Assembly (NCBI GenBank): GCA_964635125.1
Contig: CAZWMQ010000001.1
Coordinates: 84,386 to 148,385, forward strand
Origin: an uncultured Candidatus Saccharibacteria bacterium
Lineage (GTDB): Bacteria > Patescibacteriota > Minisyncoccia > Phycocordibacterales > UBA5272
Direction of reading: 5' to 3'
Length of the DNA stretch: 64,000 nt
How positions within the stretch are numbered: position 1 is the stretch's first letter; each line of letters starts with the position of its first letter. The notes beneath the pieces were generated by a model. It saw nothing but the letters and a program-made list of their open reading frames with translations, was not told the DNA's origin and searched no databases. The translations under genes and the position numbers were made by a program. Below, piece by piece: positions 15,010 to 59,992 of this stretch.

Positions 15010-15210
15010 ATCTATCGTTATGTTGTAATTTTGCGACACTGACGATATCGATTTTCGATATAAGATGTGTCTGAAATGACGGCTTTTTATTTTGAATATT
15101 TTTTATTTCATATTGAATTTTTAAGTTTTTACTCTTGACTTTTTATTAGATAACTAGTAGATTATAAATAGTTAATAATTTTTAATCTTTAATTTTTAAA
15201 AATTTTTGAG

Positions 15211-15399
15211 ATGGGAAAATTAATAATGTTTTGTCTTTTATTAATCGCTTCTTTTAATTCCAGCCATCTTTCTCCCAAAGCTAATAATTTGATAGGAGTA
15301 TTATGGATATTTTTAATTGGTTGGGTCTTATTTATACATAAAGACCCTCCAGTAAAGAAAAAGAAGCGAAGAATCTATTTTGAAGATGACGAAGATTAG
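15211..15399 (+). CDS. Small hypothetical membrane protein
   Basis: 62 aa, two hydrophobic segments. Confidence 0.25.
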   Translation: MGKLIMFCLLLIASFNSSHLSPKANNLIGVLWIFLIGWVLFIHKDPPVKKKKRRIYFEDDED

Positions 15400-15633
15400 G
15401 ACTTTTAAATTATTATAAATATTAGTCTTAATCATATTTAAGGCTATAATTTACTTTTAAGTAAGATAAAATTTAGCCTTTTTATTTTTGTGTATTTTTA
15501 TCTATTCCGGCTAATTTTTTGATATTTTAAAGTTGTGAATAATTAATTTGCCTTATTTTTTTAGATGATATAATTAATTTATAGGTTATTTAGTCAGATA
15601 ATCTTTAAATTATTAACTTATATATAAAATTTT

Positions 15634-16200: not shown

Positions 16201-16292
16201 TAAAGTTTATAAAGATTATCTAACTATAAAAATAAAATCACTTTAAAAGATAAAGTGATTTTATTTTTATCTTATGTTACAATAATATTAAT

Positions 16293-16541
16293 ATGGAAGG
16301 AGTTAATAAGGTAGCTAATTCAGTAATAGATCAATTTATAAATCCCGCAGTTTATTTATTATCAGCCTTTGCTTTCGTGTGGTTTTTATATGGAGTAGCT
16401 TTATTTATTTATCATAAAAAAAATGGGAATACAGAGGGAGTAAGTACGGGGAAAAGACATATGATATGAGGCATGGTTGGATTAATTATAATTTATTCAG
16501 CCTCAGCTATTTATACATTTATTACTGGATTTTTTAATTAA
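16293..16541 (+). CDS. Small two-TM pilin-like protein (82 aa, one UGA-Trp)
   Basis: FAFVWFLYGVALFIY ... HMIWGMVGLIIIY; same family motif as the neighbouring paralogs. Confidence 0.35.
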
Positions 16542-18972: not shown

Positions 18973-20343
18973 ATGGTTTTTAAATATAATTTTAGACAAT
19001 TTTGTCTAATTATAGGCGTAATTACTTTAATTAGTGGAGTAGTTTTTTTTTCTAATTTAAATAGTCATAAGATATATGCCGAAACTCCTCAATGCAATAC
19101 TCCTGAAGAAAAAATACAATGTAATAAAGATTTAGATGATTTGAATCAGCAGATTCAGCAATTAGGTCAATATATTTCTCAGAATAAAGATCAGCAAGCT
19201 TCTTTGTCCAGGGATATAAATATTTTAAAGGCAGAGATTAGTAAGAAGACTTTAGAAATTCAAAAGGCTAATAATAATATATATTCGCTATCCAATAAAA
19301 TAACTGAAAAAAATATAGAATTAAATGATTTAGCTGATACTTTAGATAAACAAAAATTAGCTTTAGCTTTAGCTCTGAGGAATTTATATGTATTTGACGG
19401 AGCTAATAATTTTGTAAATATGCTTTTAGATAATAAAAGTCTATCACAATTTTTTGAAGATTCTGATAATATGATTGCCTTACAAGGAGCAATTAATCAA
19501 GATGTAGATAGTATAAAGACTACTAGCAATCAAGTTAATCAAGTTAAAAATGATCTGGAAGATAGTAAAGATACACAAGTCGCCTTAAGAGAACAGCAAC
19601 AAGCTGATAAGAAGAAAATCGACTCCTCAAAGCAGGCTAAAAATGATTTATTGACTGAAACTAAAGGTCAAGAAGCAGTTTATAATGAACAATTAAAAGA
19701 TAAACAAGCTAAAGCCGCTCAAATTAGAGCTGCCTTATTTTCTTTTGCTGGAGGAGAAACAAAAGCTATACCATTTGGAGATGCTTTAACTTATGCTGAG
19801 ACTGCTGAAGCTAAAACTGGAGTTCCAGCAGCTTTTGTTCTTTCTATATTACAACAAGAATCAGCACTCGGAGCTAATGTCGGTAAATGTTATTTAAGTG
19901 ATACAGAAAGCGGAGCTGGTTATAATATTAATACTAAACAACAATTTCCAAATGTGATGAAGGCCAGTAGAGATTTGCCAGGATTTTTAAATATTACCAA
20001 TCGTTTAAGTATTAACCCATTAGCAACGGTAGTATCTTGCCCAATTCCATCGGCAGGTGGTTATGGTGGTGCAATGGGTCCAGCTCAATTTATACCATCA
20101 ACTTGATTATCAATTGAAGACGGGGCTGGAGTATTTAATCCTTGGAATGCAAAAGATGCAATTATAGCTTCATCATATTATTTATCAACTTTAGGAGCAG
20201 GAGAAACTTATACTTCTCAAATTAAAGCCGCTTGTCGATATTATGGAACAGGCGGAGGTACATGTTCATATGGTAGATCGGTTATGTCTAAAGTTGATGA
20301 TACTCAGACTAAGATTGATTATATTAAGCAATATGGGCAATAA
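18973..20343 (+). CDS. Secreted coiled-coil protein with C-terminal lytic transglycosylase (SLT-like) domain; one UGA-Trp at 20104-20106
   Basis: N-terminal TM/signal, long Q/K/D-rich coiled coil, then AFVLSILQQESALG, an SLT E-S catalytic-type motif; continuous frame through to 20343. Confidence 0.5.
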
Positions 20344-31439: not shown

Positions 31440-32213
31440 ATGAAGATTATTAATTATAATGATAAGATCATTTTATATTTTTTACCTAAAAATGATGGTA
31501 AATTTAGATTTAAAATTAGGTTTAATAACTTTTCTTTTGGTGAAAGTTTTGCCACAACAACAAAACCATTTACTGATAAAGTATATTTAGAATGGCAAAT
31601 AGGTTATGATGCATTAATTAAAGATACGATAGTTGGAAAAGATGAAAAAAAATCAAAAAAACACACATCTCTAACAAACATATCTTTTAAAGGCTTTAAT
31701 AAAAAAGATAAATATCTATATGAATTATCAGAAATATTCTTTTTTCTTTTCAAAAATAATATAATATCTTCTAATTTTATAGAAGATTTGATAAAAGAAA
31801 TAAAATCATATAAAGAGTTTATAAGCGATAAAGATATTTTTATAGAAAAAGATTTAATAAATGTAATTATAAATAATATAGATTTTAAAGAAACTACTAC
31901 CTCTTTACCGACTTTCTTTTATTATCCTAAAACAGGTGCAACTCAAATAGAAGTTTTTATACAAAAACAGCAATATGCCACTGGTGTTCAGCCTATGGTT
32001 TATTATTCTATACCAGTAAAAAGTTTTAAAAATGGAGAAAATATAATAGGAAAAACATATAAAGATTTAAAAGATAAAGTAGAACTAGAATATGTCATTG
32101 ATAAAAGTAATGCTTCTAATTTTATAGATCTTATAAAAATTTTTGGTATGTGTAGTCCAGCACATAATTTTGATATTTTAGAAATATTAAATTCAATATT
32201 GAAATATAGATAA
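31440..32213 (+). CDS. Hypothetical protein; candidate type II restriction endonuclease partner of the downstream methyltransferase
   Basis: 257 aa; co-directional, 1-bp gap to the methyltransferase; very low GC; no homology recognisable by eye. Confidence 0.3.
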   Translation: MKIINYNDKIILYFLPKNDGKFRFKIRFNNFSFGESFATTTKPFTDKVYLEWQIGYDALIKDTIVGKDEKKSKKHTSLTNISFKGFNKKDKYLYELSEIFFFLFKNNIISSNFIEDLIKEIKSYKEFISDKDIFIEKDLINVIINNIDFKETTTSLPTFFYYPKTGATQIEVFIQKQQYATGVQPMVYYSIPVKSFKNGENIIGKTYKDLKDKVELEYVIDKSNASNFIDLIKIFGMCSPAHNFDILEILNSILKYR

Positions 32214-32214
32214 T

Positions 32215-33396
32215 ATGATACAAAAACATTTAACAAAACAAAAGCAAATTGAATTAGGTAGTTTTTATACTCCTGATTATTTAGTGGATAAGATGTATTC
32301 TATTATAGATGACTATCTTAATAGTAATAATATAAATAAAAAATCTATATTATTTTTTGATAATGCAAGCGGTTATGGAGCTTTTTATAGACCGAATAGA
32401 GATTTTATTATGGCAGATATAGATGAAAAAGCAATAGAAAAAATCAAAAAGAAATTGAGAATTAAAAATAAGAGTTTATTTATTACTAATTCTTTAGAAA
32501 ACGTTAGTAGAAATAAATTTAACATTAATAAGGATAAATTTCTTATTAATATTGGTAACCCTCCATATAATGATACTACTTCCATAATTAATAATGGTAA
32601 AAAAGGTAATTTTTCTTGTGATTTAGATTTAGTAGATAGAGATATGGGTATTTCATTTTTAAAATCCTTCAATAAATTAAAATCAGATATAGTTTGTGTA
32701 TTACATCCATTATCTTATTTAATTAAAGAAGCGAACTTTAAAAGATTAAAAGACTTCAAAGATAATTATAGAATTATATATGGAGAAATATTTTCTAGTG
32801 AACATTTTTCAGGAACAGGTAAAACAAAATTTCCTATAGTATTAGCTTTATACGAAAGGAGTCATTCAGGGATGGATTTTTCTTATATTAAAAATTTTAA
32901 TTTTAATATATTAAATCAGAAAAAGAAGTTTAAATTGTTAAATTTTAAAACTACAGATGGATTTATTTATAAATATCCAAAAGAAGTTTTTAATATGAAT
33001 AATTTTTCTGGTTTTTACTACTATACATTTAGAGATATTAATTCTCTTAAAAGAAATTCTGATTTTTTATTTGAAAGAAATTATAATTCCATTTCTATAA
33101 GTATAGATGAACTATATAAATATGCTTATTTATATAGTTTTAAAAAGTTGTTTAGTCCAAAAGATATATGAATTTATGGGAATTTATCTCCATTGTTAGA
33201 TGAAGAAATTGAGAAATTTAAAAAAGAATATTTATTATTTTCAGTACTAGATTCTGGACTTCATAAAAATATAAGCATAGATCTAAAAAGAAAAATAAAA
33301 TCTTATTATAAATTAGATAGAAATTATTATAAATCTGATTTAAAAGAATTAAAAAAAATTGTGGAACAAAGAATTAATAGTTTAGCTACTATTTAA
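32215..33396 (+). CDS. N6-adenine DNA methyltransferase, gamma class (TaqI/Eco57I-like)
   Basis: Motif X GSFYTPDYLVDKM (compare M.TaqI VETPPEVVDFMV), motif I FDNASGYGAF, motif IV NPPY; UGA-Trp at 33169-33171 joins ORF 33193. Confidence 0.75.
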
Positions 33397-35840: not shown

Positions 35841-36617
35841 ATGGAAGGATTAGTAATTAATAGTGGTCGCAGAGATAATAAAAAATTTAAAGTTCTAGAT
35901 CTTAATTCTAATCAAGAGTTATTGATTCCAGATATTGAGTCAATAAACATTAATCCTTGGCTTTTAGCAATTTATTATAGAGCTGAAATAATTAGAGAAA
36001 GAATACAAAGAAGACATAATAGTGAGGAAGAAAAGGATCTATTTAAGAAATTATTTAAGGTGATTAAAAATAATAATCGCTCGGAAATATCTCTAGGAGA
36101 TATTAAGGTTGGCTTAGATAGTGAATCTTATTATGCTGAAAATATAGTAAAAAATCTAAAAGACGGGGAACATATTTGTATGTCTTATAATTTGGATGCC
36201 GAATCACAAATTGATTTTATAAAAGTTAAATTAAGTGAAGATAGAAAAGGGTTTGAAGAAGTAACATTTGTACAAATTAAAAGTAGCGATAATAAATCAA
36301 AATTTCAAGTCAAAGACACTCATGAGAAACAATTAAGAGACTCTTATCAAGATCAAATCAAGAATATAGAGAAATATATTCCGAGAATTTTGAAGTATAC
36401 TGAGGGTCTTCACGAGGAAGATCTATCAGAAATATTAAGAGAAAATAAAAAAGCTTATAGAGATAAAGGTGTGACTTCTGCAGATATTTTTTTAAAAATA
36501 AGAGGTAAATTTGAGATTAACAATATTATTAATGCTAGGCATTTTTATTCAGAAACAGTTAGAGTGTATCGAGATGAAAAAGACCAAGTTAATAGTATGA
36601 GAAGTCAAAAGGAATAG
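35841..36617 (+). CDS. Hypothetical protein
   Basis: 258 aa ORF, charged, no TM, no recognisable motif. Confidence 0.35.
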   Translation: MEGLVINSGRRDNKKFKVLDLNSNQELLIPDIESININPWLLAIYYRAEIIRERIQRRHNSEEEKDLFKKLFKVIKNNNRSEISLGDIKVGLDSESYYAENIVKNLKDGEHICMSYNLDAESQIDFIKVKLSEDRKGFEEVTFVQIKSSDNKSKFQVKDTHEKQLRDSYQDQIKNIEKYIPRILKYTEGLHEEDLSEILRENKKAYRDKGVTSADIFLKIRGKFEINNIINARHFYSETVRVYRDEKDQVNSMRSQKE

Positions 36618-36838
36618 ATATTTCCCTCGATTGAGTATGAGATTATGAGTATAGACAAAAAGATTAAAGATTTGGAAGCTAAAATACAGAAAAGACCAGG
36701 ACATAAAGATAATAGATATATTTTGAATATGATAGAAAATTTAAAGATTAAAAGAGAGGATTTGTTAAAACAATTATAGACACCTTTACTTTTATCTCTA
36801 AATATGGTATTCTAATTAAAGTAATCAAAAATTAAAAA

Positions 36839-37111
36839 ATGACAAAGATTAAAAATTTAAGAGACGAAGTTCTCTTAAAAAAAATTCAAGAACAGATCAC
36901 TCTTCTGAAAAATGGGCTATCTAGCCTTAATTCAGAGTATTCTCTAAAAGAACTCTATAAGGAGTTTTATCCAAGATTTATATTTACCTCAAAGGATTAT
37001 CAAACTTGTCTTGATAATTTCAATAAGGGTAAAATAAGTGAGGAGGATTTTAGAAAACAATTCGCAACTTTTTGTACCAAAAAACAAATAGAGTTAGGAA
37101 TTGTTTTTTAA
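36839..37111 (+). CDS. Hypothetical protein
   Basis: 90 aa ORF. Confidence 0.3.
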   Translation: MTKIKNLRDEVLLKKIQEQITLLKNGLSSLNSEYSLKELYKEFYPRFIFTSKDYQTCLDNFNKGKISEEDFRKQFATFCTKKQIELGIVF

Positions 37112-37271
37112 AAGAGAAGATTTTTCTTGAATTTTCCGCCTCCACTATATATGTAAGTAGAGGCGGATTTTCTTTTATAAAAGATATAAAAACATATATT
37201 ATTGACCTTATTATATAATTATGGTATTATTATATTAGCAACGATATTTTTGAACCTTAAAAATAAAAAAT

Positions 37272-37664
37272 ATGAAAAAAAGAGAATTAAAAGATGGTCT
37301 TTTTGGACCAGCCAATCCAAAGAAGTTTAGAATTTGGAGTGGCGGACAAAATACTTTTTTAAAAGAAGAATATTTTTTCTTTTTGAATGAAAAGGAAAGA
37401 CATATGGATATATTTTGTATGGAGTTCTGTACAGGATGTGGCCGGCTTCTTTTTTTTGATAAAGAAAAAGCTATGAAGTATTATGAAGAAATTTTTCTAG
37501 GAGATGCAAAAGATTTCTTAGAAAAATTATCTAACATCTCTAAAAGATCTCAGTATATCGAGGTCCCGGTATGTCAATACTGTGTTGAGGATCTTTCAAG
37601 GCAAGAAGCCGAAGCCAAGAAAGAAATACTTTTGAATCCAATTCCAGTAATTAAAAATTTTTAA
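37272..37664 (+). CDS. Hypothetical zinc-ribbon protein (CxxC...CxxC)
   Basis: 130 aa; CTGCG ... CQYC Cys pairs. Confidence 0.35.
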   Translation: MKKRELKDGLFGPANPKKFRIWSGGQNTFLKEEYFFFLNEKERHMDIFCMEFCTGCGRLLFFDKEKAMKYYEEIFLGDAKDFLEKLSNISKRSQYIEVPVCQYCVEDLSRQEAEAKKEILLNPIPVIKNF

Positions 37665-37665
37665 G

Positions 37666-37974
37666 ATGGAAACAATAAAGTTTAAGGGTTTAACTGCTGA
37701 AGAGCGGTTAAACCTAGATATGCCGGAGGATCTTTTTCAAGAAATGAAAGAAGATCCTAAAGTTAAAGAGTATCTTGAGCTAGAAAAAAATAAAAAGTCT
37801 AATTCTCGATCAGTTGAACTTTATCTATATATAATTAAAAAATATGTAGATAAAACTAAAGGGTTGACGGAGGTGAATCTTCTTTTAGAAGAAGTAACTC
37901 TGATTCCGGAGAGGTTAATTTTTCTTATAAATTTAAGAAAATTAACCTTAAAAAAACTTATAGAAAAATTTTGA
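37666..37974 (+). CDS. Hypothetical protein
   Basis: 102 aa ORF, 1-bp gap to the previous gene. Confidence 0.3.
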   Translation: METIKFKGLTAEERLNLDMPEDLFQEMKEDPKVKEYLELEKNKKSNSRSVELYLYIIKKYVDKTKGLTEVNLLLEEVTLIPERLIFLINLRKLTLKKLIEKF

Positions 37975-37980
37975 TTTTTT

Positions 37981-38010
37981 AAAACCGCTATTGCGGTTTT
38001 TATTTTTTGA
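37981..38010 (+). terminator. Rho-independent terminator aaaaccgctattgcggttttTATTTTTT
   Basis: Perfect hairpin followed by a T-run directly after the stop of the 37666 gene. Confidence 0.7.
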
Positions 38011-38215
38011 TGTATAATATTAGTATGAAAAATTGGCGAAAATTTTATAATTCTAAATTTAATACTTTCTTATTAATTATCTTAATAATTTTAATGATTA
38101 TAGCAATCATTTATATGAAAAAGAATCCAGGAATATATTTTCCTAATTAATTTTAAAGTTAAGGTTTAACTTTATATTTTATAGTTTCGTGTTATAATAA
38201 AACTCTTAAGAAGAT

Positions 38216-39154
38216 ATGGCAATTGGCAAATCTTTATACACCGAGCAGTCAAATAATGTTTTTAAGACTTGGCTTTATATGGCAGTGTTTGTTTTCTTAT
38301 TTGCTATTTTAGGGCTTTTTGTTGCTTATTATTATGGGAATGTTAGTATTTTCTATATCGCTATAATTATTGCTTTAATAATGAATATCTATTCATATTG
38401 GAAAAGTGATAAATTAGTCTTATCTATGTCTGGAGCGAAAGAGATTGCGAATAAATCTCAATATTCAGAGTTATGGAATGTTGTTGAAAATATAGCGATC
38501 ACCGCTGGATTACCAATGCCAAAGTTATATATTATTGACGATCCAATTCCGAATGCTTTCGCTACCGGAAGAAATAAAAATCATGCGGCGATCGCTGTTA
38601 CCTCAGGACTTGCTTCAATGTTAAATAAAAGTGAACTGGAAGGAGTGATTGCTCATGAGATGAGCCATATTGGGAATCGGGATATTTTAATCTCTACAAT
38701 CATTGTTGTCATGGTTTCAGCAGTAACATTTCTTTCGCAAATCTTTTTTAGATTTAGTATATTTGGTGGTGGAAGAAGTAATGATAGAGATTCAAATAGC
38801 GGAGGATTTCTAATGGTTGCTGGATTTATCGTAATGCTAGTCTTAGCGCCACTAGCAGCCACAGTTATACAATTAGCGATATCACGAAAGCGAGAATTCT
38901 TAGCGGATGCGGATGGAGCAATCTTAACTCGTTATCCAGAAGGGCTCGCTTCGGCCTTAGAAAAGATTTCCCAATTTAATCAACCTTTAAAGAAGGCTAA
39001 TAATGCTACGGCTCATTTATATATTGTAAATCCAATGGGACTTAATTCTAATAATATAGATGGAAAGAAAAAGACAAATTGGCTTACAAGATTATTTATG
39101 ACTCACCCTCCAATTGAAGAAAGAATTAAAGCTCTAATGGGGATGAAAGAGTAA
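38216..39154 (+). CDS. htpX: Heat-shock M48 protease HtpX
   Basis: 312 aa; TMs, HEMSHIGNRD (HExxH), C-terminal FMTHPPIEERI. Confidence 0.9.
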   Translation: MAIGKSLYTEQSNNVFKTWLYMAVFVFLFAILGLFVAYYYGNVSIFYIAIIIALIMNIYSYWKSDKLVLSMSGAKEIANKSQYSELWNVVENIAITAGLPMPKLYIIDDPIPNAFATGRNKNHAAIAVTSGLASMLNKSELEGVIAHEMSHIGNRDILISTIIVVMVSAVTFLSQIFFRFSIFGGGRSNDRDSNSGGFLMVAGFIVMLVLAPLAATVIQLAISRKREFLADADGAILTRYPEGLASALEKISQFNQPLKKANNATAHLYIVNPMGLNSNNIDGKKKTNWLTRLFMTHPPIEERIKALMGMKE

Positions 39155-39180
39155 GTTTAGGATTTTTTGGGAATCTCTTT
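39135..39180 (+). repeat. Direct repeat copy 1 (htpX 3' end: aagaaagaattaaagctctaatggg...) matching 45925-45970 with 3 mismatches
   Basis: About 46-bp near-identical direct repeat seen in the sequence. Confidence 0.8.
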
Positions 39181-39323
39181 TTTAGAATATTTTATATTAA
39201 TTCTATATTATAGAATAGTTGTTTAGATTAAATATTAAATATATTATATTTTTATAAGGTTTTACAGAATCTTTTAATTTTTGAGAAATAAAATCTGTTA
39301 TAATTATAATAACAGATAAATAT

Positions 39324-42300
39324 ATGGGTAATAGTAGAGCAAGAACTAATAAAAAAAGAACCCTAAGAGAAATTATAACTTCTAAGATGAGTAAAGAGGA
39401 TAGAGATGTCTTAATTAAGCGAGAAGCGGAAGAGTATTTAGCTATTTGTAGAGACGAATCTTGCCATAAGGTAGTTAAACAAGTAAAGAAGTCTAAGCAT
39501 TTTTTAAAATGAGCTATTAAACTAATCTTACCTGATTTTTTAGTTGGACATCCTAATCTTTTTGATAATTTCCGAACTCTACGAACCCATCCACAATTCC
39601 ATGCTTTTCGGAGAGCGATAATTGCTTGGATAATATTTACTGTAATAGTCAGCTCATCCGGAATCTATTCTTTAATTAATGCTAAAAAAAGTAGTGCTCA
39701 AGTACAATTTCAATTTAAAACTGGATATTATTTAGGGGCCGGAGATGGAACAGTCAAACATATTACAGGCTTAGGATTTAAGCCGGAGGTCTTGATAATA
39801 AAAGCTGATACTACAGCAGGATATGCAATATTTAAAACAGCCTCTATGTCAAGTGGAGAATATGCTTATTTTGCTGCTTCAGCAGATAATGTAGAGAATC
39901 AAATAACTTTTGATGACGATGGTTTTACTTTACAATTAAATGGAGATGTCAATGCTAATAATGTTATTTATAAATATATTGCCTTCGCCGGCAATGATTG
40001 TTCTTCATCTGGAGTAATGTGTTACGGTTCTTATAATGGAAATTATGTAGTCGGGTCACCTAATCAGACTATAAATACAGGATTTAGTCCTGATCTTGTA
40101 ATTGTAAAACGTACCATAACTACAGCCGCTAATTTTCTAACTTCTGTTATGCCAGATTCTGGAGCAGGATATGCTAGTTTTTTCACAGCTACGGCCGACG
40201 ACACTACTGCTAATTATTTTCCGGCGAATTCCATTAGCAGTAATGGGTTTACGGTGGGTCCATCTAACAATACTTATGCCGGATTATTTTATTATTTAAC
40301 TTTTAAAAAAGGTGCTGGGATTTTAGATGTCGGAAGTTATACTGGTAATGGAACTAGTCAAACCATAAGTCCTCCATTAATGTCTCAAGTTACTCCAAAC
40401 TTCGTACTTACTAAAGCTACCACTGCAGTTTTGCCTGTATTTAATACGACTCAAAGCTACGGTGACTATTCAAGTGTTTTATCTAATGCTGCTAATGTTA
40501 CTGGAGCTATAAAGCAATTAATTCCAGGCGGTTTTTCATTAGGTAATAGTAGCTATTCTAATAGTAATAATACAGGTTATTGATATTTTAGTTTTGCTGG
40601 TGGGAACATGCCGGTAGCCAACGGTTCATTTTTAATGAAAGCAGGATCATATGTTGGAGATGGCAGTGCTAACCGTACAATTGGAGATATAGGATTCACC
40701 CCTGATTTAGTTATTGTAAAATCTGACGGACCAGATTATGCAATTTGAAGCACATCCATGGATTATAATTTTTCTCATTATTTTTCAGTAGCCTTAGCTG
40801 GCATAACCAATGCTATTTTAGGTATGGTTAATGGCGGATTTACCATAGGATCACATTCTACAGTTAATACTAATGGTACAACTTATCATTATGAAGCTTT
40901 TGGAAATGCTTCAACCCCATTTGCAGGTGGGAGAGCGGCTGATTTTGTAATCGGAGCTTATACTGGTAATGGTTTAGTGAGAGATATAACTAATTTACCA
41001 GTTAGTCCTGACATGGTGATGATAAAAGAAAACGGTACAGATGCAGCGACTGTTTGGTCTTCAACTATAATGGCGACAGGGACAACAGCTTTCTTATCAG
41101 CAACAACTAACGATGTTTCTGGAAATTTAATCAAACAGATTAATTCAGATGGATTTTCTTTAGGTACTAATAATATTGTAAATCGATCTGGTTATGTAAA
41201 TAATTTCTTTGCCTTTTCAAAAAGTGCTGCTTTTAATATAGGATTATATACAGGTTCTGGCAGTCAGCAAGATATAACTACTACCGATGGAAATACTGCC
41301 ATAGGGTTTACCCCAGATTATGTCATAACTAAAAGAAGTACCAATGTTGATCCTGCTCATCGATCAAGCGCAATAGATTTAGGAAATACGACTCAGTATT
41401 TTAAAAATGTGGCTAATTTTAATAATGGTATTACTGATATTATTAATGGAGGATTTAGAGTGAGTACTGACGCCACCGTTAATACAAATAGTGGAACTTA
41501 TTATTTTTTTGCTTGAAAGGCTAGTACAGCTACAACTTCACCAGCAACACCAGTTAATGTTTCTCCACCTGATAATGCTTCTGATATTGGTTTAAACGAC
41601 ACTTTACAAGCTTCTGCTTATACAGATTTAAATCCTCAATTAGGTACTATGTGACAAATAGCAGATGATCCAAATTTTAATTCTTTAGTTTGAAGTCGAA
41701 CAACAAATAACGCTGAAACAAGTATTGTTATTAATTCTAGTAATGGAGTGTTTTCCGGTTCTTTAAATGGAAAACAAAAGCTTAAACACAACACTAATTA
41801 TTATTGAAGAGTAAAGTATTCTAATAGTGTGTATTCAGCATGATCGACCTCAACCTCTTTTAAAACTTTAGCAATAGATAAACCAACTAATATTTCTCCA
41901 ACAGATCAAGAAATTATTAGCACATTGAGTCCACTTCTAAGCGCTTCTACTTTTTCTGATCCAGAAGTAGGGGATACAGCAAATTTAGTTGAATGACAAA
42001 TAGATACTAAGATTAATTTTGACTCACCAATTTACGATTCGGGATCTATTAGCTATAATAATTCTATAACAATTCCAGACGCGACTCTTTCTGATAGGAC
42101 GGTATATTATTGAAGAGTTAGGTATTTGGATTCTGATAATCAATGATCTGATTATTCAACACCTACCAGATTCTTAACTTCTAAAGAAGCAGAAGTCTCG
42201 GTCAATCCTCTTTTCGGAGGGAATGTAGTTAATCAAGGAGACCAGGTAAAAATTGATGCCCAAGTTAAGACAGTAGATGGTTTAGCAGTTAATGATGCTA

Positions 42301-45300
42301 CAACGACAATTAGTATTTATAATCCTTCTGGTGCGAAGATTATCAATAATGAGACGATGAATTACATCGCATCATCTAGTGGTATTTATCGATATCCATT
42401 TACTATTCCAAATATTGATGGAAGTTATTTGTATGAAATATCTGCAAAGACTGGTATATATAATGGACTAGGAGCAGCAAATTTTGAAGTTAGAAATACA
42501 GCACAAGATATAGCTGATACAAAATCTACAGTGGTAAATAATAACAATCTAATTACTGACACTAAAAATATTGCCTCAAATACTCAAAATCTTACAAATA
42601 ATATAAAGACTACGGTGGAAGATACTCAAAACATTGCTTCCAATACTCAAAATCTCGCGAATAATATAAAAACCACTGTAGATGACACACAGTCTATCGC
42701 TTCTTCTACGAATTCTCTAACTTCTTCTATTAAAAATACAGTGGAGAGTAATAAAGCCAACCTAGATATTTTAGTTGGAGCTTTTATTGTGACTCAAGGA
42801 TCGGTGAATGACGCTTCTCCCACAACTAATTCTTTTATCTCTTCTCTGACGAATTCTACTGATAATTTTTATAAAAATTCAGTCTTAACTTTTACTTCTG
42901 GAGTCTTAGACGGACAAAGTAGAAGAGTCAGTGATTATAGTGGGACTACTAAGAGATTCACTTTAGATCCTGCTTTGACTAATGCACCAGTTACGGGAGA
43001 TACTTTTACTATCACTACCCAAAATGTCCGAGTCGAAGAACAAGTTGCTGATCACGAGGCCTCATCTTCAGCTTTTCGAGCTGACACTACTTCTCGTTTA
43101 ACAAGTATTGAAGGTAAAGTAGATTCAATTATCTCAACTTTAAATACTGTAGATTCTAATTTAGATGATGCTCAAAGTATGCTTAATCAAGTAAGACAAG
43201 CTCAAAATAATAATTATACTATTGAGTATTCTGATATATCTAAAATTCAAGCTGGGACCACTTATCGTGCTAAATTAACCATTTTAGATTTTCAAGATAA
43301 GCCAGTTGATGCTTCTTCCACTCCGTCTGTGATAATTTATGATCCTACACGAGCAACAGCTACAGGTACTCCAGCCACTATGACTAGGCTCTCAACTGGA
43401 GTTTATGAATATACTTATATCACTAGTACTGATGCCGTGGCTGGATTGTGAGAGAGTGTAGCTACAATTAATATAAACGGAGAAAATATTACAAAGAATG
43501 ATTATTTTGAAGTAGCCGGAGCTCCTGCTCAGGTGTTTATTAATAGTATAAGTAATACTAATATCCCTAATATTTCAGCTGAAACAACAATTACCAACGA
43601 AGGAGGGGGAGAATATGAATATCATTATGAATGATGTGTAGTCTCAACTGAAAACAATCCTTGTGGAGGAAGTGATGATATTTATTATGCTTCCGGAGCT
43701 AAGCTTATATCACCTGGACAGAGTTTTACTCCAACTTTGACCGCCACAGTCAATCAGATTGGTGATTATTGGTTTAAGTTAGTCGTATATTATGGTACAG
43801 AAGTAAGTGCAGCTTCAAGAACATTTACAGCCACTAATAATATAAATAACAATGGTAATAGTAGTGGTAGCAGTGGAGGGGGTGTCTCTTATAATCCCGC
43901 TAGCCAAACAGATATATATCAAGAATTAACAGATATTCATAATCAATTAGATATAAATTCTCAAAAGCTTTCGGCCACCTTAGATAGTCTAGGAATTATT
44001 AATCCAGTTTTAAAAAATCTTTTAGAAGTAGTTAGTTTAAGTAGTAATAATTTAAAAGACACCCAGAATAAAGTTGCCGATCTTAAAGCTATTTCAGCAA
44101 CTATTAGACAAATTGTCGATGGAGGAGCAACTACACCAACTGTAGAGACCTATATGAAATTTAATTCTGTTGAAATTCATTTTCTTATTACCAATCCTTC
44201 AGATGAAGCTCAGACAGTAAAATTTAAAGCTTTCTTGCCAGCTGAAGCTAAACCAGAAAATATAATGAATTTAGACGGATTACAAATAGACTATGATACA
44301 AATGCTAATAGTTATTATGTTCACGGGGATATTTATCTAAAAGCAAAAGAAAGTATTGCCAAGGAAGTCGAGATGAAAGATATCTGACAATTTTCTAAAG
44401 AAGAAATACAATCTATCAGAGACCAAGTCTCAGAATTAATTGGATTATTAAAAAAATCTCAATATGAAACTGATGGAGTATTATTAAAAAATAGTATAGA
44501 ATCAACATTAAATATTATTACAAATAAACAAGACGAGAGTTATTCCTCCCCTCAAGAACACATTGTTACATTTAGAGAAAATCAAGAGAGAATGCTAGAA
44601 GTTAAAAATAATTTAGAGAAATTAAAGTCTTTAGTTTCAGAGGCTAATAATTCTAAAAGTATAGTTGGAAATATTGGAGGTATACAAACTTTTGCTACCT
44701 GAGGAATTATTTTAGCTATTGTCTTTGGATTCGCTTTACTGGCTGTTGTGATATTTGCTATGTGAAGGCATCAAACCATTTTAGCTACACAAGCTTTAGG
44801 TTTAAGTAAATTAGATACAGATAAGCATTTTGGTAAGAAAGTATTTGATAAATACTCAAATGTAGATATTAATGAGGAGGCAGGATATTTTCATCAACAT
44901 AAGTCTATTAAAAAGATAGTCTTAGTTATTATTTTATCCTCAATGATTATAGTATTTGGTATTTTTGCTTCCAGGTATATATATAGATTTAAAGATATAT
45001 CATTTTTGAAAAATATAAAAGTAATCGATGATAAAGTTAATGTAAATAACACTTTAATTAAAGAAGAAGATAAAGGCGATACTAGTGTTCCCACAAGCGA
45101 GGAAAAAGCTAATACTAATTTAGCTCAAAATGATTTAGATAATATAAGCTCTAACAATACTGATTTATTGGAAATATTAAATACTGAAACGGGCTGACTA
45201 AATGTTAGAAGTGAACCATCTTCTAAATCTGATTTAATCAATAAAGTATATCCACAAGAGAAATATCAGTATATAGACAAAAAAGATAATTGGTATAAAA

Positions 45301-45362
45301 TTATATTAAAAGATAAATCTACAGGTTGGGTCTATGATAAATATGTTAAAATCACCAATTAA
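39324..45362 (+). CDS. Giant cell-surface protein (about 2012 aa) with N-terminal cytoplasmic basic segment and TM, tandem beta-rich repeats, FN3/Ig-like segments with conserved YYWRV, 21-aa tandem repeats, two C-terminal TMs and a C-terminal bacterial SH3 (SH3b) domain; at least 15 UGA-Trp codons
   Basis: Six track ORFs (39324, 39792, 40758, 42357, 43737, 44943) and the intervening segments all lie in one frame with no TAA/TAG; UGA falls at W of repeated YY-W-RVKY/RVRY motifs; C-terminal WLNVRSEPS..GWVYDKYVKI SH3b-like. Confidence 0.75.
42567..42755 (+). repeat. Three tandem 63-bp (21-aa) repeats NIASNTQNLTNNIKTTVEDTQ inside the giant gene
   Basis: Direct tandem repetition at DNA and protein level. 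Confidence 0.8.
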
Positions 45363-45801
45363 AAAAGAAGAATTAATATTTGATACTCTTACAAAGAGTA
45401 TCGCCTTATTGGTAATGGGGCTAATTTTACCAGCAATCATAATTGTGATTGTTAAATTTACTGGATATTCTGAAGTTGTAGAAGAAATAGCTAAAGCCAC
45501 CATTGTTTTATTTTTAATATCAAATTTAAAAACTTACAGATTAGAGGTTATTTTTGCCATACTTTTTGGTTTTTTATTTGGCTTATCTGAAAATATTTTT
45601 TATTTTAATCAGATTTTACAATCAGGTAATATGGATACTTTTTGGCAAAGGTTTATTTGGACTATACCTATGCATATTTTTACAGTATTAATAATGACTT
45701 TAACAGCGACGGGTAGAAAATGGTTTTTATTTTTTGGTATTTTGGCAGCAATAGTGGTTCATATTATATTTAATGTGATAATTGCCCCAAGTCTTATTTA
45801 A
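45334..45801 (+). CDS. Hypothetical polytopic membrane protein (overlaps the giant gene by 29 nt)
   Basis: 155 aa with 4-5 TM helices. Confidence 0.4.
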   Translation: MINMLKSPIKKEELIFDTLTKSIALLVMGLILPAIIIVIVKFTGYSEVVEEIAKATIVLFLISNLKTYRLEVIFAILFGFLFGLSENIFYFNQILQSGNMDTFWQRFIWTIPMHIFTVLIMTLTATGRKWFLFFGILAAIVVHIIFNVIIAPSLI

Positions 45802-45924
45802 TAGTCTGGAATAATTAAGCTTAAAGTCGAGGTCTAATATTGAAGCTGTGGTATACTTTATATACAATATAAATAAGACACAAAAGGAATAGTAGAGTCT
45901 TCAGGTATGAGATCGTTTTAAAAT

Positions 45925-45970
45925 TTAAGAAAGAATTAAAGCTCTAATGGGTATGAAAGAATAAGTTTAT
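45925..45970 (+). repeat. Direct repeat copy 2 (degenerate duplicate of the htpX 3' end)
   Basis: Matches 39135-39180. Confidence 0.8.
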
Positions 45971-45979: not shown

Positions 45980-46510
45980 ATGAAAAATAATTTAAGAAAA
46001 TTCTGGGATAATTTATTTTTAATATTTTTAATTATTTATACTATAGTGACTATTTCTCATGTATTTAAATTTGAGAAGATTTGATGGGTGTATTTATTAT
46101 TTTTAGCTGGATTACTTCTAGCTAGATTCGCTCATGTTAGGAAAAATTATATTACGATTATTCTTTTATTAATTCACATGAGTATTGAATGATTCGAATG
46201 GTCACAGAGTGGGATGAGTTTCGGGCAAGGAATATGGAATGCCCTTCATGTAATAATGGACTTTGTCTTTCTTACTCATGAATTATCAGTTCATGCTAAG
46301 AGACATCGTTATACTATACTATCAGTCTGTGTAGTTTTTCTTCTATCTATATTTATTTTAGGGCATTTTATAATTCCAAGAGTCCCAGCTATTCTAGATT
46401 CAATTGAGCCATTTGTAATTGGAGGAATATTGGGCTGTGTTCTGTCACATCTTTATTATCATTTACGAAGTAGTTTTAAATTATTAGAAGGAAGAGAGCA
46501 TTGGCATTAG
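45980..46510 (+). CDS. Hypothetical membrane protein (176 aa; 2 UGA-Trp)
   Basis: ATG at 45980 in frame with track ORF 46214 through two TGAs; several TM helices. Confidence 0.4.
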
Positions 46511-55287: not shown

Positions 55288-56361
55288 ATGGCTTTATTTA
55301 GTAAAGATAAAAAAGAAGTGATTGAAAGTTGTGCTGGGGTTGATATCGGCTCTTATGCTATTAAAGTTTTACAAGTGAAGAAAGACACCAATCAGATTCA
55401 TCTTGAGACTTATGGTGAATTAGAATTAGCTGCTTATGACGCACTTCCCCCAGGGTCGATATCTAATATCGGTGAAGAAAAGACTATACAAGCGATGAAA
55501 GATCTATTATTAGCTAGTAAAATAACTGCGGAGAAATTTGTCTTTGCTATACCGATGCAAGAATGTTTTATAACTTCAATCACAATTCCAAGAGTATCCG
55601 ACAAAGAATTAGCTAGTATAATACCATTAGAAGCTAGAAAATATTTACCAATGCCGATTTCTGAAGTTAAATTAAATTATTGACGAACTAATCTTGGGGA
55701 TAAAGTTACCGATAGTAAGGATATAATTATGATCGCTGCCGTCAAAAATAATACTTTTGAAATGTACGAAAGATATGTTAAAAAATTAGGTATTAGAGAT
55801 TATTCTTTTGAGATCGAAAGTCTTTCTCAAGCTAGAGTAGTTCTCAATAATTTTACAAAAGAAAAATTTATCTTGACAGTTGATATAGGAGCGAAAAGTA
55901 GTTTTATTTCTTTTATTAAAAATGGTTATATACAAGAGACCAGGATTATACAAAAAGGTTCTTATGATAATACTTTTCAGATTTCTAAGATTTTAGGATT
56001 ATCAATTGATGTTGCTGAAGAAGCTAAAAGAATATTTGGATATTTAGGGGACGATTCTTCTCCGCATTTAGCCGAGGTTATGGGATTAGCAAGTTTTCCA
56101 CTATTTGATGAAATTAAGTCACATTTATTAAGATATGAGAGAAATTATAGTATAATAATAGAGAAGGTAGTTATAACTGGAGGCGGGGCTTTGGTTAAGG
56201 GAATACAAAAAATACTTTCAGAGTTTTTAGAAAAAGAAGTTGTTTTATTAAATGTATTTTCTCAATTAACTTTACCAGATAATATAAAAGAAGAATTAAG
56301 TAAAGGTAATCAAAATTATGCAATCGCTACCGGCTTAGCTTTAAAAAATTATTTTAAATAA
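55288..56361 (+). CDS. pilM: Type IV pilus assembly protein PilM (actin-like ATPase) (357 aa; one UGA-Trp)
   Basis: GVDIGSYAIKVLQ N-terminal motif, ITGGGA C-terminal motif; ORFs 55288 and 55729 in the same frame. Confidence 0.75.
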
Positions 56362-56365
56362 AATT

Positions 56366-57214
56366 ATGTTCGACAAACAAGCACAAGATCTTTTAAGTAA
56401 ATCTCAAGACAGCGGGGTATTTAATCAATTTGTTGCTCCAATTACTACTGACAACTTAAGAACAAAAAAAGACACTGTAAGAAGAGTTTTATTATTTATT
56501 TTTATAATAATTATTTTATTAGCAATCGGTTCAGTATTTCTAGTTAAATCTTTAGAGTCGACTATTAATTTTAAACAAGACCAACTTCAAGCTTATAATA
56601 ATTCCTCAAATGTAATTCAATTTGAAAAAAATCTCCCAGACATGCGAGATATTTCTCAGAAATTAAAATTATTAAACGATGTCTACACCTCCAAACAATA
56701 TATTTCTGGAATGTTTTTCCCAATTTTAGGGTCTTTGGTAGAGTCTTCTCGAATTAGTTATGTATATTTTAATAGAATAAGTCTTAAAAAAGATAATAAT
56801 ACTAATCTTATGAATATTTCTTTATCAGGTATTGCTCTTGATTATCCTACTTTATATAGACAAGTTAATAATTTTAAATTTGGAACTTACTCTAACTATA
56901 TTCATAATTTTAAATTACAAAGTTTCTCAATGTCTCAAGATATGAATGTTGAGTTTAGTATAGCTTTTGATATTGAGATAAATACTCCATCCTATTTAAA
57001 GTATATTAAATCAATAAGTGGGGTAGTTAGCTCATCAACATTTACAGGTTCCAATTCCCCAGGTCCTCTATATGATAATAAAAGTAATAATTTATCTAAT
57101 GCAAGTGTAATAGACTCATCCTCTTCTAATGAAGAGCAAAATATCAATTTCGTAGTCTCGTCTGGTAGTGAAAGTGGCCCTAATAATACCACTAACAACG
57201 AAACTTCAAATTAA
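56366..57214 (+). CDS. pilN: PilN-like pilus assembly protein (bitopic) with S/N-rich C-terminal tail
   Basis: Short cytoplasmic N-terminus, single TM, periplasmic domain; position after pilM. Confidence 0.5.
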   Translation: MFDKQAQDLLSKSQDSGVFNQFVAPITTDNLRTKKDTVRRVLLFIFIIIILLAIGSVFLVKSLESTINFKQDQLQAYNNSSNVIQFEKNLPDMRDISQKLKLLNDVYTSKQYISGMFFPILGSLVESSRISYVYFNRISLKKDNNTNLMNISLSGIALDYPTLYRQVNNFKFGTYSNYIHNFKLQSFSMSQDMNVEFSIAFDIEINTPSYLKYIKSISGVVSSSTFTGSNSPGPLYDNKSNNLSNASVIDSSSSNEEQNINFVVSSGSESGPNNTTNNETSN

Positions 57215-57230
57215 ATGTTAAAATAATTAT

Positions 57231-57827
57231 ATGCATAGTGATAAAGTTAAAAATAAATTCTACTACAACTTACTATTGATATTAGTTTCTTTTGGAATTA
57301 TTTATTTCTTTATCTATCCAATGTATTCTGGTACAGGACAAATCTATTCTCCAAAGAAAGGGATTAAGGATCTATTACAAGAAAAGAATGATTTAAATAA
57401 TGCTTTAGACATCGTTCAAGATTATGATATAAAATTAGGCGAAGCTAATAAATCTTATAGTCAAGCCTTAGGAGCTTTACCATTAGATGAATTAAATAAG
57501 ATTTTACCAACTAGTGCTGATCCAGTCTTAATAGCTTATGAAATTACAAAGATTGCCGGAAGGTCAGGATCAAATATGCTTTTATCTGGTTTATCAGTGA
57601 ATGAGGGACAGAGTAGTAATAAGAAATATAATACTATGACTATTAATTTTAGTACAGAAGGGTCTTATGATAATTTAAAGAATTTTTTACATGATTTAGA
57701 GACTTCCCAGAGAATATATAATGTTTCTTCTCTATCTTTCTCGTCCGAAAAAGATAGTATTAGTTCTTCAGTATATAAATATTCTCTCACCATTGAGACT
57801 TATTATTTATCCAAAAATGATAATTAA
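57231..57827 (+). CDS. pilO: PilO-like pilus assembly protein
   Basis: Single N-terminal TM, coiled-coil then ferredoxin-like domain pattern; gene order. Confidence 0.45.
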   Translation: MHSDKVKNKFYYNLLLILVSFGIIYFFIYPMYSGTGQIYSPKKGIKDLLQEKNDLNNALDIVQDYDIKLGEANKSYSQALGALPLDELNKILPTSADPVLIAYEITKIAGRSGSNMLLSGLSVNEGQSSNKKYNTMTINFSTEGSYDNLKNFLHDLETSQRIYNVSSLSFSSEKDSISSSVYKYSLTIETYYLSKNDN

Positions 57828-57836
57828 AATAAATAT

Positions 57837-58151
57837 ATGAATAATTTAACTAGAGCAAAAATAAATTCAAAAGCAAGTTGGTTTTTAACTATAATTGGGA
57901 TTGCTCTTTTAGCTTATTTTATTTACGAAGGTTTTTTTGCTTCTAAGAGCGTCGGATTAGATGCTGGGAATAATGTTTATGTTTCAGGAACTAAACAGGC
58001 CAAAGATTATGATATTTTTAATAAAGAAAATTTAAATTTTAACAATACAGGGAGTAATATTGATCAAAGTCTTTTAAACAATATACAAGATTTTTCAGTC
58101 ACAGTTGACCCAAGTAGTTATATTGGAAGAGATAATCCATTTATACCTTAA
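57837..58151 (+). CDS. Hypothetical bitopic protein in the pilus cluster (PilP-like?)
   Basis: 104 aa with one TM; context only. Confidence 0.3.
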   Translation: MNNLTRAKINSKASWFLTIIGIALLAYFIYEGFFASKSVGLDAGNNVYVSGTKQAKDYDIFNKENLNFNNTGSNIDQSLLNNIQDFSVTVDPSSYIGRDNPFIP

Positions 58152-58192
58152 TAGTTTAATATTTAATCTAAATTTAATGTTATAATTTAAAT

Positions 58193-59992
58193 ATGATTTT
58201 ATTAAATCTTTTAGTCTCTCAAAATGTCTTGAGTGAATTAGAGGCTCGAGCTATAGAAGAAGAAGCTAAAAACTCAACTTCACCGATTGATGAGATTTTA
58301 GCTGAGCATAATGTTTCAGATGCAGCTATTTTAACTGCTCGTAATGCTATTTACGGCATACCAGTTTATAGTGGGAGCAGAGATTTAGCTAACGAGACTT
58401 TGTATAATTTGTTTGATCAAGAAAAAGCAGAGAGGTATTTAGCCATTCCGTTAGGATTTAGAGATCTAGAAGAAGAGAATAATCCGGAAATAATTGCTAA
58501 AAGACAAGAGCTAAAAAAGGATAATGAATTTATTAAAAATAAAGACATCGTTGACGAAGTTTTGATAGGTATTGTTGATCCTGAAAGAAAAAATGTTCTA
58601 GATGCTTTACAATTTATATTAACTTCTGCTGGAGTTAGTTATAAAATATATCTGATTTCTTTTAATGAATTTAAACGAAGATTCGACGGATATTCTTCCG
58701 GACAAGTTAAGGCCGTTCCACAGTTTAATCGTAAAAGTGACGATAAGGATGACCCTAATCAGACTAATTTGATAGATATTACTGACGAAGACGACACATT
58801 GTTAGAATCTTTAACTGATTCAATGCCAATGGTAAAGATGGTTAATGTCATTTTAAAGAATGCTATTGTTAATTTAGCTTCTGATATTCATATAGAAGAT
58901 ATTGGTACTAATTTACGTATACGAACCAGAATAGATGGTATTTTAGCCACTCGTTTTATGATTCCAGTCTCTCGGCATGCTTCAATGGTAGCCAGGATTA
59001 AAATTCTCTGTAATTTAAAGTTAGACGAAAAAAGAAAGCCCCAAGATGGTAGATTCTCGGTTAAATATAATGGACATAAAGTTGACTTCCGTGTCTCGAC
59101 ATTACCAACTTATTATGGAGAAAAAGTAGTGATTCGTATTTTAGATAGTTATAGAGGGGTTAAGAAATTAGAAGAAATTGGTTTTTCAGATTCTCATTTA
59201 AAAAAGATTAGAGCAGCCATCGCTAGACCTTACGGCATGGTTTTAATCTCGGGACCAACTGGGTCTGGAAAATCAACCACACTTTATTCAATGATAAATG
59301 AGTTAGATAAAGAACATTTGAATATAGTTTCACTTGAGGACCCAATTGAATATAATATTCCCGGGATTAGTCAGTCTCAGATTTTCCCGGAGATTGGTTA
59401 TACTTTTGCGACTGGTTTAAGATCTATACTTAGACAAGATCCTAATGTAATCTTTGTTGGAGAGATTAGAGATGGAGAAACTGCCCAATTAGCTATTCAA
59501 GCAGCTTTGACTGGACACTTAGTTTTTTCTACTATCCACACTAATAATGCAATTGGAGTGGTTACTCGTCTTATGGATATGGGAGTTGATCCATATTTGA
59601 TCGCTCCAACTTTGAATTTAGCTATTGCTCAAAGACTGGCTAGAAAAATAGCCAAAGATGCTGGAGAAGAACTTAATGATCCAGGATTAAGATCAATTAT
59701 TCAAGAAAGTTTTAAAGATTTACCAGATGAATATAAGAAAGAATTACCTTTAGATAAGAATCCATATAAAGCAAATTCAACTGCAGCCAACCCTTCTGGG
59801 TTAAAAGGAAGAATAGCTGTATTTGAGATGTTAGAAGTTGATACTGATATTGAGAATTTGATTTTACACAAAGCCTCAGAAGAAGAGATTTGGAAAGCGG
59901 CTCGTAAAAAGGGTATGATCAATATAAATGAAGATGGAATGATAAAAAGTATTCAAGGCATTATTCCATTCACTGAGGCAGAGAGTGTTTAG
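58193..59992 (+). CDS. pilB: Type IV pilus assembly ATPase PilB (GspE family)
   Basis: GSPII_E N-domain, Walker A SGPTGSGKSTT, Asp box, Walker B, His box, tetra-Cys region absent. Confidence 0.9.
   Translation: MILLNLLVSQNVLSELEARAIEEEAKNSTSPIDEILAEHNVSDAAILTARNAIYGIPVYSGSRDLANETLYNLFDQEKAERYLAIPLGFRDLEEENNPEIIAKRQELKKDNEFIKNKDIVDEVLIGIVDPERKNVLDALQFILTSAGVSYKIYLISFNEFKRRFDGYSSGQVKAVPQFNRKSDDKDDPNQTNLIDITDEDDTLLESLTDSMPMVKMVNVILKNAIVNLASDIHIEDIGTNLRIRTRIDGILATRFMIPVSRHASMVARIKILCNLKLDEKRKPQDGRFSVKYNGHKVDFRVSTLPTYYGEKVVIRILDSYRGVKKLEEIGFSDSHLKKIRAAIARPYGMVLISGPTGSGKSTTLYSMINELDKEHLNIVSLEDPIEYNIPGISQSQIFPEIGYTFATGLRSILRQDPNVIFVGEIRDGETAQLAIQAALTGHLVFSTIHTNNAIGVVTRLMDMGVDPYLIAPTLNLAIAQRLARKIAKDAGEELNDPGLRSIIQESFKDLPDEYKKELPLDKNPYKANSTAANPSGLKGRIAVFEMLEVDTDIENLILHKASEEEIWKAARKKGMININEDGMIKSIQGIIPFTEAESV

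Follow-up and report, generated by a model that had tools for sequence, protein, structure and literature searches.

Elements that integrate at the 3′ end of protein-coding genes and bring a replacement end with them are represented by e14 and phage 21 in the icd gene of Escherichia coli. In these cases the target gene is kept intact by a near-identical 3′ end, the displaced end persists as a short pseudo-copy, and the two copies differ mainly at synonymous positions. In tRNA genes, a 3′ end broken in the T-loop is the classic sublocation of tyrosine integrases. Integrative units that are flanked by attachment (att) sites and lack a recombinase are also already known; cis-mobilizable elements (CIMEs) are defined in PMC5704250 (section 2.3), and the tycheposon tRNA islands of Prochlorococcus are characterized by partial-tRNA flanks and by tandem elements parted by partial tRNA copies, with degenerate remnants and cargo gathering beside the tRNA gene (10.1101/2020.12.28.424599). 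Tycheposons are defined by a tyrosine, rarely a serine, recombinase, and often carry replication genes (10.1101/2020.12.28.424599). Here, a recombinase-less locus with att-like repeats is described from the Patescibacteria, a phylum whose mobile elements are poorly known. It lies in a metagenome-derived stretch of 64 kb (hereafter the window; GC content 29.5%), in which a 6,762-bp segment with a gene for a giant surface protein and a gene for a PrsW-like intramembrane protease stands between two copies of the htpX 3′ end.

The Patescibacteria, or Candidate Phyla Radiation (CPR), live as episymbionts, have tiny genomes and probably use giant surface proteins for attachment. Knowledge of genome rearrangement and gene exchange in these organisms is very scarce. 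The locus is of interest in that a conserved giant-protein operon has been cleanly moved into the end of a housekeeping gene, with an att-like scar and no recombinase, and its analysis corrects the view of the giant gene as a foreign acquisition.

The direct repeat and the integrity of the locus

The target gene, htpX (38216–39154; all features of the locus are on the forward strand), encodes an M48 zinc metalloprotease of 312 aa (Pfam Peptidase_M48, E = 2.7e-34), homologs of which are named HtpX by several sources. Its reading frame is complete despite the insertion at its 3′ end. The 48-nt sequence AATTGAAGAAAGAATTAAAGCTCTAATGGGGATGAAAGAGTAAGTTTA, referred to below as the core, is found at 39112–39159 (copy 1, attL-like) and again at 45922–45969 (copy 2, attR-like), with 45 of the 48 positions identical and 3 mismatches. 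These are the only two core matches in the window, compared with 0.00 expected from 100 dinucleotide-preserving shuffles, and a repeat search returned the same 39112/45922 pair with a spacing of 6810. The direct repeat that an earlier note on this DNA had described as bracketing the segment is therefore real. The note placed copy 2 correctly; copy 1, which it had put at 39135–39180, lies about 23 nt further left, and instead of roughly 20 htpX codons it spans the last 13 codons, the stop codon (39152–39154) and 5 nt past the stop.

The leftmost mismatch between the copies falls at repeat position 5, where GAA in copy 1 is replaced by TAA in copy 2, and the securely homologous block may be the 43 nt at 39117–39159, with 2 mismatches. 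Both of these internal mismatches are third-position changes that are silent when read as htpX (GGG/GGT and GAG/GAA), which would be natural for an incoming copy that functionally imitated the htpX end. Copy 2 is a displaced, non-functional fragment of that end; read in the htpX frame it gives ...DRFKI(stop)ERIKALMGMKE(stop), with a stop created at the left edge of the repeat, and it leads into the original 15-nt spacer before the downstream ATG. Between the two copies lie the 6,762 bp of the insert (39160–45921), and in the insert tail (45802–45921) similarity to htpX is absent outside repeat copy 2.

The same arrangement was found in contigs of two runs, SRR11845633 (L001 and L007) and SRR11845619 (L002 and L008). 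L001 and L002 show 0 mismatches to the window, with L001 covering the entire insert, and L007 and L008 carry the same core and the same gene order at the right junction. In all four contigs the core is confined to the same two junctions, and the sole contig break (L002/L008) falls within the giant gene, away from the repeat. Since both junctions are present in contigs of two runs, the arrangement is not an assembly artefact.

Empty sites and the polarity of the insertion

HtpX homologs place the organism in the Patescibacteria, where matches of 69% identity or less bear Paceibacteria- or Nomurabacteria-type names. In the four closest HtpX relatives, L003, L004, L005 and L006 (identity 81, 77, 75 and 73%), a gap of 8, 2, 100 and 12 nt, respectively, separates the end of htpX from the ortholog of the gene that in the window stands past copy 2. 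This gene (45980–46510) encodes a 176-aa membrane protein, whose orthologs in L003–L006 carry the motif SIEWFEWSQ, and it is the ancestral immediate neighbour of htpX on the downstream side. The empty site proposed for comparison in the earlier note, with htpX running directly into the 45980 gene, thus exists in all four relatives. Upstream neighbours are shared where the contigs reach, namely LemA (L004, L005 and L006), thrS (L004 and L006) and gyrB (L006), and for the gene convergent with the 176-aa gene on its far side tblastn gave no homology in L003. The reconstructed pre-insertion sequence reads htpX...core-TGGAAAAAAC-ATG, the ATG being that of the 176-aa gene.

In a neighbour-joining tree of HtpX, the window and L003 are sisters in 100 of 100 bootstraps, with L004/L005 and then L006 outside. 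On this single-gene tree the four genomes with empty sites are paraphyletic to the window and in no case group together to its exclusion, and one gain is therefore favoured over at least three precise losses. The segment is very probably a lineage-specific insertion, and the insertion at the htpX 3′ end that the earlier note had proposed is placed by the empty sites and the tree in the lineage of the window.

Gene content and genetic code of the insert

At its left end the insert begins with an AT-rich non-coding leader (39160–39323), which is missing from the empty sites of the relatives. The best promoter-like site of the region is located in this leader (39281–39310, TTGAGA-18-TATAAT, 11/12 consensus match), 14 nt before the ATG of the giant gene. 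The giant gene (39324–45362) encodes a membrane-anchored surface protein of 2012 aa, in which Pfam recognizes four DUF7483 repeats, Ig_Rha78A_N, MG2 and a C-terminal SH3_3 domain. Its hydrophobic segments are found near both ends (about 99–117, 1784–1802 and 1865–1883), with an ectodomain of about 1,670 aa. The second gene (45334–45801) encodes a PrsW-like intramembrane protease of 155 aa with four hydrophobic segments (Pfam PrsW-protease, E = 4.6e-8), and its start and the end of the giant gene share 29 nt (45334–45362). A non-coding tail (45802–45921) with a weak promoter-like site (45840–45868) closes the insert. The bracketed segment was said in the earlier note to contain only the 2012-aa gene and a small membrane protein gene, and this is its whole coding content.

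Some smaller features of the two genes may be added. Window positions 42558–42683, within the giant gene, form a tandem 63-nt repeat (79% identity, units DT(K/Q)NIASNTQNL(T/A)NNIKTTV(E/D)), which belongs to a Ser/Thr/Asn-rich segment that is probably a coiled coil. The overlap of the PrsW-like and giant genes recurs with 20–29 nt in several genomes (window 45334–45362, L009 6035–6054, L123 17409–17431), which suggests translational coupling; the protease possibly processes the giant protein. The promoter-like site of the tail could drive the downstream 176-aa gene.

Calling of open reading frames (ORFs) with translation table 11 splits the giant gene, and only when TGA is read as a sense codon is the single 2012-aa ORF, with TGA as tryptophan, intact. 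The alignment of TGA with TGG/Trp led to the choice of code 4 over code 25. The invariant W of SIEWFEWSQ in the 176-aa protein is encoded by TGA in the window (46190–46192), L003 and L006, and by TGG in L004 and L005. Tryptophan in the giant gene is encoded by 17 TGA versus 5 TGG codons, a higher share of TGA than in host genes, and in an alignment with 13 homologs invariant Trp columns coincide with 7 of the 17 TGA codons, and nearly invariant ones with 3 more. For Patescibacteriota, a preprint of May 2026 gave the first report of UGA reassigned to Trp, in the class Minisyncoccia, and TGA = Trp at this locus is consistent with recent knowledge and not new. Code 4 is common to L003, L006 and L009, the last being the locus with the nearest homologs of the insert genes, whereas most other patescibacterial loci with this gene pair use the standard code 11. 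The GC content of the giant gene (0.330; 0.181 at third codon positions) is host-like.

Origin and spread of the cargo

Full-length homologs of the giant protein, with 41–54% identity and the same domain order, occur in many Patescibacteria, and a relative of it is encoded in 178 species-representative genomes. In every readable locus the PrsW-like gene directly follows the full-length giant homolog (24 other loci and 3 further arrangements), and the pair is treated below as one module. L009, with the nearest homologs, and L006, with an empty htpX site, derive from one sample. The identity between the window and L009 is 54% for the giant protein and 61% for the PrsW-like protein, and orthologs of the window and L006 share 45–51% in the case of membrane and accessory proteins and 72–83% in the case of enzymes. 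The divergence of the module is within the range of the flanking orthologs (45–83%) and therefore fits vertical descent with a changed location, on the plausible, not proven, assumption that L006 and L009 belong to one genome. Since most of the other module-bearing genomes use the standard code, a recent import from those is excluded. To the earlier note the giant gene appeared to be cargo acquired by horizontal transfer. A foreign origin is not supported, in view of a pair conserved across the Patescibacteria, with the code and composition of the host and ortholog-like divergence. The sequences are better explained by a lineage-typical module that changed its place, or was passed on among members of the TGA = Trp clade, than by the import of an exotic adhesin.

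The neighbours of the module vary from genome to genome. They include htpX in the window, MFS (major facilitator superfamily) genes in L010, a metallophosphatase gene in L012, pheS/pheT in L125 and L20/IF3 in L123. In L009 the module lies between two tRNA genes, one of them tRNA-Leu(GAG), and in L122 beside murG and Mur ligase genes, where it splits the dcw (division and cell wall) cluster. The order at L122 (6279–23325) is mraY-like, ftsW and murG, then the module with small ORFs and a cation ATPase gene, then two Mur ligase genes and DivIC; a reverse transcriptase gene (RVT_1) is located at 280–1209 of the same locus.

Scars and RNA genes at other module loci

A search for direct repeats between the two flanks was made at about 20 module loci, and it recovered the repeat of the window and two more, in L010 and L017. 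In L010 a repeat of 32–35 nt brackets a unit of 7.05 kb. The terminal 24 nt of a tRNA-Ser-like gene (T-loop to acceptor end) and about 10 nt downstream make up this repeat; the intact tRNA-Ser-like gene stands at one end of the unit, and the opposite end has the fragment. A third, partial tRNA-Ser-like copy is found directly past the PrsW-like gene, and the copies lie at 6587–6621, about 13500–13520 and 13673–13707. L011, from a different sample, encodes a giant protein identical to that of L010, and the two loci diverge directly past TATAAATGCGGAG at the tRNA junction, where L011 (7060–7482) continues into GC-richer DNA with a stretch of about 70 nt that resembles the module leader (about 70% identical). 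The pair represents a structural polymorphism of the integration-hotspot kind, and its pattern suggests tandem elements at one tRNA site. In L017, tRNA-Gln is followed after 12 nt by the start of a repeat of about 92–114 nt, which is confined to the two positions that bracket the unit; a dispersed intergenic element was considered for it and rejected, as no other copies occur within 18 kb. The bracketed units of L010 and L017 have no recombinase gene.

A further scar was observed in L033, where a perfect 21-nt 3′ fragment of tRNA-Leu(caa), broken in the T-loop, lies at 7736–7756, 24 nt after the PrsW-like gene. It stands 133 nt before the intact convergent tRNA-Leu gene (7890–7972) and encloses with it a remnant of about 133 nt. 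By comparison with tRNA targets in general, the T-loop breakpoints in L010 and L033 would fit the tyrosine-type class of integrases. ARAGORN called none of the truncated tRNAs, which were recognized by comparison with the intact tRNA-Ser and tRNA-Leu genes, and an Rfam scan of the insert flanks and L009–L011 gave no match. On the opposite flank of the other tRNA-adjacent modules no tRNA fragments were found beyond L017, and a whole-locus search gave same-side fragments only.

The module is also associated with RNA genes more generally. A tRNA or transfer-messenger RNA (tmRNA) gene lies within 300 nt downstream of 6 of 18 modules, compared with 25 of 886 control ORFs of the same loci (Fisher p = 1.4e-5), and the 3′ end of the RNA gene faces the module in 5 of 18 cases versus 7 of 886 controls (p = 1.3e-6). 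These counts were made on species representatives, and as the loci are phylogenetically non-independent the p-values are optimistic. The adjacent RNA genes differ, being tmRNA and the tRNA genes for Asp, Pro, Ala and Leu.

Mechanism of insertion

A 43–48-bp imperfect repeat of a gene 3′ end, combined with a restored ORF and a displaced fragment, is by analogy with described elements the signature of tyrosine-type attP × attB recombination. On this model, 39160–45921 would be a self-contained two-gene operon with its own promoter, inserted in the last 13 codons of htpX. The incoming DNA would have carried a 43–48-bp sequence matching the htpX 3′ end, and an exchange like that between attP and attB under a tyrosine integrase would have completed the htpX frame with copy 1 and displaced copy 2, leaving it before the old downstream gene with the original spacer. 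The predicted attB junction is htpX-core-TGGAAAAAACATG, and the predicted attP junction is …GATCGTTTTAA-core-GGATTTTTTGGG…. Because the recombinase is outside both the element and the 64 kb, it would have been supplied in trans, to a non-autonomous CIME-like cassette, or lost after integration, which would leave a relic. That the segment was made by site-specific recombination, with a recombinase acting in trans or since lost, has in our judgement an even chance of being correct. The footprint of site-specific integration seen in the earlier note is confirmed as to its attL/attR geometry, from which we infer the site-specific mechanism and any present-day mobility, and the wording 'integrase-less cassette or decayed island' is kept as the best description. 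Were the segment mobile, this would indicate that CPR bacteria possess a recombination system acting in trans and a means of exchanging surface proteins; were it only a relic, it would be a clean, dated case of the decay of an island to selected cargo in a streamlined genome.

Several results weigh against this mechanism. Pfam scans of the 64-kb window revealed no integrase, recombinase or transposase, and in the insert they gave only the DUF7483, Ig, MG2 and SH3 domains and the PrsW-like protease, with no recombinase or transposase domain; the earlier note had likewise reported none. Among the 25 largest families of the 148 ORFs flanking modules (21 loci, about 5.5 kb) only housekeeping functions and no recombinase were found. 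The exact core had 0 matches in metagenomes and viral contigs of the Joint Genome Institute (JGI), without attP or attB variants, and no circular junction, conspecific empty site or second core copy was detected in the JGI metagenome, viral, phage and plasmid collections. About 17 of the 20 module loci with both flanks have no bracketing repeat, even with a sensitive search included, and the three bracketing repeats share no sequence, so that no single common recombinase specificity explains them. The leader and tail of the window have no homology to those of L009, the nearest module. Moreover, the synonymous pattern of differences between the repeat copies is statistically weak, as there are only 2–3 mismatches. 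In addition, a tblastn search with an XerD probe on 1.5 Mb, an insensitive test, gave no match. The family-specific half of the module is absent from deposited phages, plasmids and viral contigs; residues about 130–740 of the giant protein, with the DUF7483 repeats, have relatives of 25–36% identity on 28 IMG/VR viral contigs (L094–L121), and the rest of the protein has none there.

Other vehicles were considered and rejected. A DDE transposon or insertion sequence was discarded on the grounds of the missing transposase, the absence of terminal inverted repeats and the 43–48 bp duplication. The best inverted repeat (39175–39204 / 45369–45398, 80% complementary) is not terminal, as one of its arms lies within the PrsW-like ORF. 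The large serine recombinase of L123 and L025 was not accepted as the vehicle, because it lies across the tRNA-Asp gene from the module. Its 545-aa ORF (in L123 1–9153; the arrangement in L025 is the same) is convergent with the tRNA-Asp gene and overlaps its 3′ end, and upstream of it are small ORFs and a 1970-aa defence-like gene (Cap4_nuclease/NACHT). By its gene content this region looks like a separate integrated island directly beside the module. A circular permutation, with the window leader corresponding to the L009 tail, was also rejected (p = 0.74).

A further-reaching possibility is that the giant/PrsW operon itself is a non-autonomous mobile cassette of the Patescibacteria, a constant unit of about 7 kb that repeatedly enters the 3′ ends of tRNA and tmRNA genes and, occasionally, of protein genes. 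Its recombinase would then be encoded elsewhere in the minimal genome or on an undiscovered element. We consider this unlikely; if true, it would mean that the main host-attachment protein is shuffled or exchanged in organisms with almost no recognised mobile elements.

Insertion may also have taken place independently of any recombinase, if template switching or the repair of widely staggered nicks duplicated a target of about 48 bp and selection kept both genes. This is in line with the finding of no recombinase in the insert or the window and of none that recurs near modules, with the lack of an attP-like junction and with three bracketing repeats that are unlike in sequence and measure 35, 48 and about 100 nt. 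The strong bias towards tRNA and tmRNA 3′ ends is, however, not expected from random breaks, and the scars of L010 and L033 are tRNA 3′ ends broken in the T-loop. Moreover, we know of no well-established bacterial mechanism for target duplications of 35–114 bp, which also counts against such an origin, and we regard it as improbable.

Homologous (Campbell-type) integration or allelic replacement would require DNA of a relative in which the module already stood beside the htpX 3′ end, followed by a RecA crossover. The rare code and the composition that the cargo shares with the host would make the donor a close relative, the two synonymous internal mismatches are as expected for a diverged functional htpX allele, and the pilus and T2SSE-type genes of the window (55288–59992; PilM, PilO and T2SSE) could serve DNA uptake. 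This explanation, however, merely shifts the origin of the htpX–module junction to an unseen donor, and the module stands at htpX in none of the four nearest relatives (0/4). A stretch of 43–48 bp is also short for efficient RecA recombination, which counts against it, and taken together these points make it quite unlikely.

The reverse polarity, in which a module at htpX is ancestral and was lost by the relatives through recombination between the repeats, is very unlikely. A deletion between the direct repeats, which are long enough for it, would give exactly the observed empty site, but at least three independent precise losses would be needed on the htpX tree, given the 100/100 grouping of the window with L003; in addition, the htpX–176-aa pair is tightly spaced in the relatives, and the sample of L006 contains a module located between two tRNA genes (L009). 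A chimeric join at a short repeat during assembly, for which nothing speaks beyond the metagenome origin of the sequence, is hardly credible in view of the two runs that carry both junctions and of a contig break that lies inside the giant gene.

Comparison with known systems

Site-specific recombination with a recombinase in trans or since lost would bring the window segment close to CIMEs. As in CIMEs, the segment is bracketed by an att-like repeat, here 48 nt that include the htpX 3′ end and would function as att sites, and it contains no integration or transfer genes; the tandem tRNA fragments of L010/L011 resemble element accretion at one att site. In contrast to CIMEs, there is no trace of a parent integrative and conjugative element or integrative and mobilizable element, the leader (164 nt) and tail (120 nt) being too short to hold remnants, and the same minimal content in L010 and L017 argues against independent decay. 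The CPR host has no known conjugative elements here, no incoming element of the same att specificity was seen, and the cargo of the window is a conserved lineage-wide operon and not a set of leftover accessory genes.

Compared with the elements in icd, the locus shows the same completion of the target gene by a near-identical end, the same displaced fragment at the far junction and the same mainly synonymous differences. However, the icd elements are prophages with their own integrase beside the att site, whereas the window insert consists of two non-recombination genes and has a shorter duplicated block.

With tycheposons the locus shares a streamlined genome, and the tRNA-side scars at other module loci resemble tycheposon remnants. 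It differs from them in that the window has no recombinase and the target is htpX and not a tRNA gene; partial-tRNA flanks are present only in L010 and L033. From both CIMEs and tycheposon islands the module differs by its constant minimal content in three independent lineages and by its conserved lineage-wide cargo. The enrichment of the module at tRNA and tmRNA 3′ ends and the fragments of L010 and L033 that start in the T-loop are shared with classical tRNA/tmRNA genomic islands; unlike these, the module is a unit of about 7 kb with two genes, constant content and no integrase, and in most of its copies a distal repeat is not detectable. Of the features of an autonomous tyrosine-integrase element, the direct repeats of a gene 3′ end and the empty sites are observed, while an integrase inside the element is not.

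Other features of the window

The upstream side of htpX differs among the relatives as well. In the window, the 2.4-kb interval between LemA and htpX contains four unannotated ORFs (258, 90, 130 and 136 aa; 35841–38076), of which only the 136-aa one has a homolog in L003 (30% identity), and in L004, L005 and L006 the interval measures only 0.3–1.0 kb. The region before htpX thus varies between lineages, too. Between gyrB and thrS (31440–33396) an RE_R_Pab1 restriction endonuclease gene and a 393-aa ORF have GC contents of 0.21 and 0.205, compared with 0.295 for the window, and L006 has a LexA_DNA_bind/Peptidase_S24/DNA_methylase gene content and a 272-aa ORF at the same spot instead; from this content, the spot looks like a variable restriction-modification hotspot. 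Finally, the stretches 11872–16541 and 18973–20343 encode a cluster of small membrane proteins matching T4SS_pilin, some of them Cys-rich at the C-terminus and one with a PG_binding_1 domain, and, near this cluster, a 456-aa SLT_2 transglycosylase.

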